Made by a program: the position numbers and the translations under genes. The notes under the pieces are model-generated. The model was given only the letters and a program-made list of their open reading frames with translations. It was not told where the DNA came from and made no database searches. From Escherichia coli (GTDB lineage Bacteria > Pseudomonadota > Gammaproteobacteria > Enterobacterales > Enterobacteriaceae): a stretch of 64,000 nt of DNA. Positions within the stretch are counted from its first letter, which is position 1; every line of letters starts with the position of its first letter. This document shows positions 34,919-36,741 of the stretch, in pieces. The stretch lies in NCBI RefSeq assembly GCF_046105845.1, contig NZ_CP151004.1; one strand, given 5' to 3'.

Positions 34919-35962
34919 TTGATAAAAATAGCAATAATATTACCATCATTGAAAAACGTTGGACCGAATAGAGTTGCACATACTCTTATTAACAAACTAA
35001 GTGATAAAGAAGGTGTATACCTAAAGGTTTTTTATATAAAAAAAGAATTAGGATTAAATTTTACTTGTGATACAGAACTTTTGACTTTAGTTAATGTACG
35101 AAAATTATATGCCTTCGATGTCTTGCATTCACATATGCTTAGGCCAGATGTCTTGGTTGGGCTACTTCCATTTTACAAAGGCCTTAAAATAAGCACAATC
35201 CATAATATAGTGACAGAAGATATACAATATACACATGGTAGTGTGATATCTAAAATTGTCTCTGAATTATGGTTTAGGATTTGGAATAGATTTGATAAGA
35301 TAGTCGTGCTATCAAAAGTAGCAAAAAAATACTATCTGGGACATGGGCTAAAATCTAAAAAATTAGAGATCATATATAATGGAATTGATCTGGATATAGG
35401 AAGTAATATCAATTATGAAGATAAGAAAATAATAGAGGAGTTTAAAGGAGACAGTACTCTTCTGGGAACACTTTGTTTAGCAAATCACAGGAAAGGTATA
35501 GAACAGATTCTTTATGCCTTGCCATTCTTACCTAATTATAAATTTATAATTATTGGTGATGGACCTGTAAGAGAATATTTAGAAAATTTAGCTATAAGTC
35601 TGAATGTAAGAGATCGATTTTTTATTCTGGGCTATAGAGAAAACGCTAAAGATTTACTAAAATATATCGATATTTATCTAATGCCAAGTAGATCGGAAGG
35701 ATTTGGTCTCGCATTGCTTGAGGCTGTTGCAGCAAAAATAACAGTAGTTTGCTCAAATATTCCAATATTTAAAGAAATCTTTACTGAACGACAAGTGTCT
35801 TTTTTTGAATTGGATAATACAAACTCACTTATTCAAGCGATACAGAACTCAATAAGTAATGATATAAATGACGCGTATATAAGGCTAAAACAAAATTATA
35901 GCTCAGATACGATGGCTCGATTATATCATGAATTATATATGACTTGTAAGGAAGTAAAATGA
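34919..35962 (+). CDS. O-antigen GT4-family glycosyltransferase
   Basis: 347 aa; C-terminal E-X7-E motif (SRSEGFGLALLEAVAAK); apparent TTG start, so the exact start is uncertain. Confidence 0.75.
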   Translation: MIKIAIILPSLKNVGPNRVAHTLINKLSDKEGVYLKVFYIKKELGLNFTCDTELLTLVNVRKLYAFDVLHSHMLRPDVLVGLLPFYKGLKISTIHNIVTEDIQYTHGSVISKIVSELWFRIWNRFDKIVVLSKVAKKYYLGHGLKSKKLEIIYNGIDLDIGSNINYEDKKIIEEFKGDSTLLGTLCLANHRKGIEQILYALPFLPNYKFIIIGDGPVREYLENLAISLNVRDRFFILGYRENAKDLLKYIDIYLMPSRSEGFGLALLEAVAAKITVVCSNIPIFKEIFTERQVSFFELDNTNSLIQAIQNSISNDINDAYIRLKQNYSSDTMARLYHELYMTCKEVK

Positions 35963-36741
35963 GGCTTTTCATATCAGTTGTATCACATGGACACGGGGAA
36001 TTAATTGAGTCATTAGGGTGTTTAGAAAAACTTTCGAAAAAATTTAGTGTTGTGCTTAAAGATAATAAAAATGAGTCCAACCTTAAAGAGTATTGCAAAC
36101 ATAATAATATAACCTACTTAAGTAGCGATATTCCTAGAGGATTTGGGGAGAATAATAATATTATATTTAACCATTGCTCATCAGAATTAGGCATGCAACC
36201 AGATGATATATTTGTAGTAATGAATCCAGATCTGATTATTGAAGAAAATGAATTGATAAAACTTAAAAATAGGATGATGTGTGAAAATATAGACTTTGCA
36301 ACTATAAATCTTTATAAAGATAGGGACTATCAAATATATGATCCATCAATCAGGAATTATCCGGGCATTCTTGACTTTGTAAATAGTTATCTTGGTTTCT
36401 CAAATAAAACAATAATAAATAAATCGGTAATTAAATCAAATACCCCGGTGCCATGGGCTGCAGGTTCATTCTTGGCATTAAAGTCTTATCTCTATAAAGA
36501 AGTTGATGGTTTTAATATCAGATATTTCATGTATTGCGAAGATATAGATATATGTATGAGGGTAGGTTCTTATGGTTATAAATTAATTTATATACCAACA
36601 ATAAAAGCCATACATCTAGCACGGCACAATAATCGACGTTTTTTATCAAAACATTTTTATTGGCATTTACGTAGTATGCTTATATATCTATCGGAAAAAA
36701 GAAAGTATGTCGCTAAAAAAAATAAGTGCTACACTAATTAA
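35959..36741 (+). CDS. wbbL: GT2 rhamnosyltransferase of the WbbL family
   Basis: 260 aa; shares the WbbL hallmarks VSHGHxE (N-term), WAAGSFL and YFMYCEDIDICMR with the K-12 enzyme as I remember it; located in an rml-containing cluster. Confidence 0.75.
   Translation: MRLFISVVSHGHGELIESLGCLEKLSKKFSVVLKDNKNESNLKEYCKHNNITYLSSDIPRGFGENNNIIFNHCSSELGMQPDDIFVVMNPDLIIEENELIKLKNRMMCENIDFATINLYKDRDYQIYDPSIRNYPGILDFVNSYLGFSNKTIINKSVIKSNTPVPWAAGSFLALKSYLYKEVDGFNIRYFMYCEDIDICMRVGSYGYKLIYIPTIKAIHLARHNNRRFLSKHFYWHLRSMLIYLSEKRKYVAKKNKCYTN

Follow-up and report, generated by a model that had tools for sequence, protein, structure and literature searches.

The window analyzed here is a 64-kb stretch of Escherichia coli DNA that carries an O-antigen gene cluster. 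Along the window the genes come in the order wcaK/L/M, galF, rmlB-rmlD-rmlA-rmlC, a GT2 glycosyltransferase gene, a GT4 glycosyltransferase gene, a WbbL-like gene, wzx, an ATP-grasp gene, a second GT4 gene and wzy, followed by a GalE-family epimerase gene, gnd, ugd, an epimerase gene on the minus strand, wzzB, and the his operon. This layout, from wcaK/L/M and galF to his, is the standard E. coli arrangement. The features on which the analysis draws are as follows.

30433..30444, plus strand: ops element GGCGGTAGCGTG of JUMPStart, 76 nt upstream of rmlB
30520..33996, plus strand: rmlB-rmlD-rmlA-rmlC, dTDP-L-rhamnose pathway (97.5-98.3% amino acid identity to rfbB/D/A/C of NZ_AP045179)
34003..34917, plus strand: GT2 of EpsE/TuaG type, 304 aa, outside the WbbL family (PF00535, 1.6e-36; NCBIfam EpsE, 1.8e-42, below cut-off)
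34919..35962, plus strand: GT4 (retaining), 347 aa (Pfam Glycos_transf_1 and Glyco_transf_4)
35959..36741, plus strand: WbbL-family GT2 (GT-A), candidate L-rhamnosyltransferase, 260 aa (homology, invariant residues, model)
36707..37936, plus strand: wzx flippase, 409 aa (Pfam Polysacc_synt_3; 78% identity to the O48 flippase, 99% to that of NZ_AP045179)
37896..38933, plus strand: ATP-grasp protein, 345 aa (Pfam Dala_Dala_lig_C, 1.4e-5; PGAP 'ATP-grasp domain-containing protein')
38908..39966, plus strand: second GT4, 352 aa (Pfam)
39963..41084, plus strand: wzy polymerase, 373 aa (Pfam Wzy_C, 4.9e-12; 76% identity to the O48 polymerase)
41103..42110, plus strand: GalE-family 4-epimerase (NCBIfam PRK10675, 447.7 bits against a cut-off of 394)
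43846..45039, plus strand: ugd, UDP-glucose 6-dehydrogenase, UDP-GlcA supply (annotated reference)
45105..46109, minus strand: NAD-dependent epimerase, gla-type candidate, putatively a UDP-GlcA 4-epimerase yielding UDP-GalA
46478..47512, plus strand: wzzB chain-length regulator (annotated reference)

The counterpart of the 41103..42110 epimerase in O48 is gne, the supplier of UDP-GalNAc, which has been placed in the O48 cluster (PMC7685785).

In the ORF listing of the window, the WbbL-like gene is an uninterrupted reading frame of 260 aa on the plus strand that starts with ATG, and the intact ORF proposed at 35959-36741 in the first-pass annotation was thus recovered with its exact coordinates. 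A Shine-Dalgarno-like GGAAG lies 7 nt 5' of the ATG, the start codon overlaps the stop codon of the preceding GT4 gene (ATGA), and the start of wzx at 36707 falls inside the 3' end of the WbbL-like gene, giving an overlap of 35 nt. This tight packing of the GT4, WbbL-like and wzx genes is a typical operon layout. The gene sits in a block of 30% G+C (34-41 kb) flanked by DNA of 52-56% G+C. An antisense ORF (35829..36098, minus strand, 89 aa) lies opposite two conserved genes and is unannotated in reference genomes; it was discarded as a by-product of AT-rich DNA.

Using blastn across the 64-kb window, we found only chance matches to IS5 of 12-19 nt (the best being 15 nt, E 0.22), in keeping with the earlier statement that no IS5 lies here. 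Taking the annotation of NZ_AP045179 as the reference, none of the 17 genes from galF through wzz is shortened, and the WbbL-like protein differs from its closest annotated homologue at 5 of 260 residues (98.1% identity). The ops element is matched twice in the window, where chance would give 0.10 matches; the second match lies at 6355 in the colanic acid region. The element upstream of rmlB marks the O-antigen operon as RfaH-dependent. A scan of the cassette for promoters and terminators gave a site count no higher than that of shuffled sequence, which is consistent with one long operon without being evidence for one. Judging from these features, the WbbL-like gene is intact and probably expressed. 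There is a very slight chance that the gene is intact and the strain nevertheless rough or the enzyme inactive, owing to point mutations or to defects in waaL, wecA, wzy, and other genes. Such a defect could reside in the five substituted residues or in waaL and wecA, which lie outside the window, but all residues invariant in the family (described below) are kept, 17 of the 17 cluster genes are full length, IS5 is absent, and the ops element is present. Nothing inside the window speaks against O-antigen production; smooth LPS as such is not deducible from the window, which does not include waaL, wecA, or the core genes.

We then compared the protein with WbbL of E. coli K-12, which the first-pass annotation had described as disrupted by IS5. 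The interruption is evident in NC_000913.3, where the annotation gives wbbL (b4571) in two pieces, one on either side of IS5I, and a reference protein of 264 aa was rebuilt by joining both pieces without IS5. The 260-aa protein aligned with the rebuilt K-12 WbbL by BLASTP at 38% identity and 61% positives over 250 aa (E 6e-61), and the alignment is collinear from residue 3 to residue 248. Kinship had been claimed on the basis of three motifs, VSHGH (aa 8-12), WAAGSFL (aa 166-172), and YFMYCEDIDICMR (aa 189-201), said to be common with the K-12 enzyme. All three occur in the 260-aa protein at these positions; identity with K-12 holds literally for VSHGH, the only one of the three that is identical in K-12 WbbL, whereas WAAGSFL corresponds to WCAGSFM and YFMYCEDIDICMR to YFMYCEDIDLCLR, each two substitutions away. 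The 304-aa GT2 of the same cluster has none of the three motifs and gave E 0.87 against the 260-aa protein. Since K-12 WbbL is matched at E 6e-61 while the 304-aa GT2 reaches only E 0.87, the resemblance to WbbL is specific and not generic; the possibility that it reflects generic GT2 similarity only, which would have undone the assignment, was accordingly rejected in favor of full-length homology with K-12 WbbL.

A database search with the 260-aa protein recovered 680 homologues at E <= 1e-10, mostly of 245-270 aa and originating from Enterobacterales, Vibrionaceae, Shewanella, Pseudoalteromonas, and similar groups. A few of these are named WbbL or N-acetylglucosaminyl-diphospho-decaprenol L-rhamnosyltransferase in their source records. 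In a family alignment of 27 members, which included K-12 WbbL and the O48, O119, Vibrio, and Edwardsiella proteins, 31 columns are invariant, and the 260-aa protein retains all 31 (e.g., S9, H10, H12, G61-F62, N65-N67, D83, N89-P90-D91, R132, W166, G169, F171, M191-Y192-C193-E194-D195, H219, and W235-H236). It carries the N-terminal SHxH, GFGxNNN, NPD in place of DXD, WxxGxF, MYCED, and C-terminal H...WH motifs of the WbbL family. The pairwise alignment (E 6e-61, with the other GT2 reaching E 0.87) and the 31 of 31 invariant columns agree with the kinship proposed earlier, and we consider it well supported, on sequence comparison, that the protein belongs to the WbbL family proper and is more than a generic GT2.

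Profile libraries are of little help in this respect. The protein scores below the Pfam GT2 cut-offs (19.2 bits against 23.3 for PF00535 and 20.4 against 27 for PF13632), and NCBIfam and Pfam hold no WbbL-specific model, the protein having only sub-threshold GT2, MftF, and TAGT matches there. Because K-12 WbbL itself gives equally weak, below-cut-off matches in NCBIfam, the two libraries cannot decide membership in the WbbL family. No solved relative was found when the PDB was searched by sequence and by family profile; matches to FimH and aureochrome were weak and were judged to be noise. An AlphaFold2 model built on the alignment (pLDDT 89.2, pTM 0.88) has GT-A catalytic domains as its best Foldseek matches in the PDB, namely ppGalNAc-T2 (E 6e-12), hyaluronan synthase, and BcsA, and on the strength of this model we are confident in predicting a GT-A fold.

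To predict the donor sugar, we considered the genes that accompany members of the family. In the window, rmlBDAC lies 2 kb upstream of the WbbL-like gene, and RmlBDAC is the only dTDP-sugar pathway of the cluster, which has no tll or other modifying genes. Family members are found in the E. coli clusters of serogroups O16, O25b, O35, O39, O48, O75, O119, and O132, as well as in the cluster types C-SRM-3, PM7, and ET670, which have no serogroup label, and in the type of the window; their pairwise identity ranges from 36 to 60%. The O25b cluster, for example, ends in WbbJ-like, WbbK-like, and WbbL-like genes. All of these E. coli loci with a visible flank contain rml genes (the upstream flank of the O35 locus being not covered), and in five of five distant loci (Vibrio cholerae, Edwardsiella tarda, Providencia, Shewanella, and Pseudoalteromonas) the distance between the family member and rml genes is no more than 8-9 kb, and in some the two are directly adjacent. 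Because of this linkage throughout, and because the cluster has no other dTDP-sugar pathway, we infer strongly that L-rhamnose, as dTDP-beta-L-Rha, is the likely donor. The use of another dTDP-6-deoxyhexose or another sugar, with the 304-aa GT2 being the real rhamnosyltransferase, is conceivable in that a second inverting GT2 is present in the cluster and E. coli WbbL also accepts dTDP-6-deoxy-L-talose in vitro (PMC10375533). However, the cluster offers RmlBDAC only for dTDP sugars, rml stands beside the family member in each locus with a visible flank, and the 304-aa GT2 is most like the EpsE/TuaG/PgaC type of UDP-sugar GT2; we therefore hold another donor to be highly improbable.

The acceptor is approached through the characterized relatives. 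In vitro, K-12 WbbL (b4571) has been reconstituted using dTDP-beta-L-Rha as donor and GlcNAc-PP-C55 as acceptor, and the enzyme depends on Mg (PMC10375533); genetics has placed WbbL as the second, committed transferase of O16 (PMC11813082, PMC10578602). The O25B unit is ->4)[beta-Glc-(1->6)][alpha-L-Rha-(1->3)]-alpha-D-Glc-(1->3)-alpha-L-Rha2Ac-(1->3)-beta-D-GlcNAc-(1-> (PMC8260533); the Glc-Rha-GlcNAc sequence is common to O25B and K-12, and the O16 and O25B units both contain alpha-L-Rha(2Ac)-(1->3)-beta-D-GlcNAc (PMC8260533). The 260-aa protein has 41% identity to the O25B member and 38% to the K-12 O16 member. An alpha-L-Rha-(1->3)-GlcNAc element occurs in the O75 and O119 units as well; a literature search for these two structures found none. 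If this background is right, the linkage would be common across the diversity of the family, and the 260-aa protein (38-50% identical) would be bracketed by members that share it.

It has been reviewed that linkage is seldom assignable from sequence alone and that the glycosyltransferases of one homology group may vary in the details (PMC7685785), and since the identity to K-12 WbbL is 38%, the exact linkage is not readable from the sequence. The same two points would allow for a WbbL-family rhamnosyltransferase that acts later, placing Rha on an internal residue (GalNAc, GalA, or other) and not on GlcNAc-PP-Und. Gene order could be reconciled with such a role, as 39% of clusters have their glycosyltransferase genes in the reverse order of action (PMC7685785) and the downstream GT4 would then act first; the WbbL-like gene is the third of four glycosyltransferase genes, and its position is thus no pointer to first action. 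Nevertheless, the O16 and O25B members both go with Rha-(1->3)-GlcNAc (PMC8260533) and stand about as far from the 260-aa protein as from the relatives of one another (family-wide identity 36-60%), every invariant position is retained, including the C-terminal H219, W235, and H236, and an initiating transferase of WecA type (PF00953) adjoins the family member in two distant loci. We consider the later-acting role possible but rather unlikely. [quoted passage not shown] On balance, a reducing-end step forming Rha-(1->3)-GlcNAc is plausible, can reasonably be inferred, and appears to us somewhat probable.

We favor, with moderate confidence, an intact WbbL-family rhamnosyltransferase that adds Rha to O-3 of GlcNAc-PP-undecaprenol in the committed second step of O-unit synthesis. 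The 260-aa protein would be a small (about 250-265 aa), inverting, metal-dependent GT-A (GT2) glycolipid rhamnosyltransferase, encoded in an RfaH/ops-controlled Wzx/Wzy O-antigen operon that extends from galF to gnd. The RmlBDAC enzymes, encoded just upstream, would make the donor dTDP-beta-L-rhamnose, and alpha-L-Rha would be moved to a lipid-linked acceptor at the cytoplasmic face of the inner membrane. This acceptor may, with moderate assurance, be taken as most likely GlcNAc-PP-undecaprenol, the WecA product, with transfer to O-3, which would commit the O-unit to assembly at its second step as K-12 WbbL does.

The cassette as a whole is rare. It was matched in 6 of 5,426 complete E. coli genomes, two of which (JNEC-KY203 and 2017.17.01CC, Japanese clinical isolates) match at 99.0%. 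The remaining four are O48 genomes, in which 89% of the cassette is matched at 85.5% DNA identity. The 99%-identical clusters carry no O48-family label in PGAP. Relative to O48, the identity is 78% for Wzx and 76% for Wzy, with Wzx, the second GT4, and Wzy all within 76-78%, and the ATP-grasp gene is missing in O48, where positions 37970-38893 of the window are replaced by ~160 bp of unrelated DNA. An O48 identity of the cluster was rejected on account of these Wzx and Wzy values and the additional ATP-grasp gene, and for the same reasons (O48 being without the ATP-grasp gene and only 76-78% identical in Wzx, the second GT4, and Wzy) the cluster is, as judged from its sequence, a distinct and rare O-genotype related to O48. 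A literature search for an OgN name of this cluster type gave nothing informative. The structure of the O48 O-antigen is reportedly the subject of work by MacLean, Webb, and Perry from 2006.

Conjecturally, the ATP-grasp protein may be a uronic-acid amidoligase; with ugd and the gla-type epimerase also present, one might speculate that the O-unit contains galacturonic acid in amidated form. The gene order common to Edwardsiella tarda suggests that the cassette represents a fuller form than O48. Tentatively, then, O48 may have lost the ATP-grasp gene from this fuller form, the O-unit of the window may be O48-like with the GalA carboxyl amidated, and the acceptor of the WbbL-like protein could differ from that of K-12 WbbL; we regard this scenario as somewhat doubtful.

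In essence, the WbbL-like protein adds one more member to an enzyme family that is already well known, and its genomic surroundings are of the usual kind; knowledge of the WbbL enzymes themselves is unchanged by it. One of the four glycosyltransferases of the cluster is given a likely step, the committed transfer of Rha to GlcNAc-PP-Und, the practical value of which is modest; it may be of use in O-unit prediction, in the design of O-genotyping targets, and in the rebuilding of the glycan in K-12 chassis strains. The cluster is more useful for serotyping, being O48-like with an ATP-grasp gene, present in 2 of 5,426 complete E. coli genomes, and syntenic with a cluster of Edwardsiella tarda.

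Among known systems, K-12/O16 WbbL is alike in length class (264 vs 260 aa), in its location in a galF-gnd O-antigen operon with rmlBDAC, in the GT-A fold, and in the SHGH, GFGxNNN, NPD, WxAGSF, YFMYCEDID, and WH motifs at matching positions. It differs in that K-12 wbbL closes its cluster, just ahead of gnd, and is interrupted by IS5I, whereas the window gene is intact and mid-cluster; the identity is only 38%, and PGAP gives the window-type protein no WbbL name. Mycobacterial WbbL (Rv3265c) is alike by reaction, transferring from dTDP-L-Rha onto GlcNAc-PP-polyprenol (PMC10375533), but it makes the arabinogalactan linker on a decaprenyl carrier and not an O-antigen. The members from O25b, O75, O119, O39, O35, and O132 have 36-50% identity to the 260-aa protein over the full length and share the same motifs, although they sit in different clusters and serogroups. 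Much closer is the O48 orthologue WP_069915476.1 ('glycosyltransferase family 2 protein'), which is 87.5% identical over 256 aa and lies between a GT4 gene and wzx in an equal order of flanking genes; its cluster, however, is without the ATP-grasp gene, and its function is putative too. The order of the whole cluster recurs in Edwardsiella tarda (CP100795.1) as rmlBDAC-GT2-GT4-WbbL-like-wzx-ATP-grasp-GT4-wzy, then an epimerase and ugd. The serotype-specific proteins there are 48-63% identical to those of the window (WbbL-like 55%, ATP-grasp 63%), the differences being another genus, another chromosomal site, and a much lower identity.

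The O-antigen cassette and the other features noted were located in the window as follows:

6355-6366, + strand: ops/JUMPStart element GGCGGTAGCGTG, exact match, within the colanic acid region
30433-30444, + strand: ops/JUMPStart element GGCGGTAGCGTG, exact match, ahead of the O-antigen operon
33900-42200: O-antigen cassette
35829-36098, - strand: 89-aa antisense ORF overlapping the junction of the GT4 and WbbL-like genes
37896-38933, + strand: ATP-grasp gene, between wzx and the second GT4

From our comparison with 5,426 complete E. coli genomes, the cassette was found at 99.0% identity in only two (JNEC-KY203 and 2017.17.01CC), while four O48 genomes matched it at 85.5% identity. 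No named O family was given to the cassette by PGAP, and its O-genotype is probably novel or unnamed. None of the complete E. coli genomes in the collection exceeded 98.2% identity to the his-sbcB flank (47600-64000); the lineage of the source strain, or at least its recombining his-sbcB region, is without a close representative there.

The two exact ops/JUMPStart matches compare with 0.1 expected by chance. The antisense ORF, which carries no annotation in the reference genomes, was set aside as one that arose by chance in AT-rich DNA. Separately, we noticed that wbbL of the clinical O16-type E. coli KUN2017-0933 is interrupted by an IS1-family transposase (NZ_CM194009.1, 1831236-1832806; match H21), an insertion that is independent of the K-12 IS5 event in the same gene.

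The entire gene order rmlBDAC-GT2-GT4-WbbL-like-wzx-ATP-grasp-GT4-wzy, followed by an epimerase and ugd, is common to the window and the following Edwardsiella tarda locus (L008):

CP100795.1, 2578-16416: syntenic cluster

Since this order is shared across genera with protein identities of 48-86%, the comparison points to lateral transfer of the cluster as a whole. The ATP-grasp gene is the most conserved serotype-specific gene between the two (63% aa identity). Given ugd and a gla-type epimerase nearby in the window, it is conceivable that its product may amidate the carboxyl group of GalA. Whereas the Edwardsiella tarda cluster carries this gene, the O48 clusters lack it and have ∼160 bp of unrelated DNA in place of the ∼924 bp of the window.
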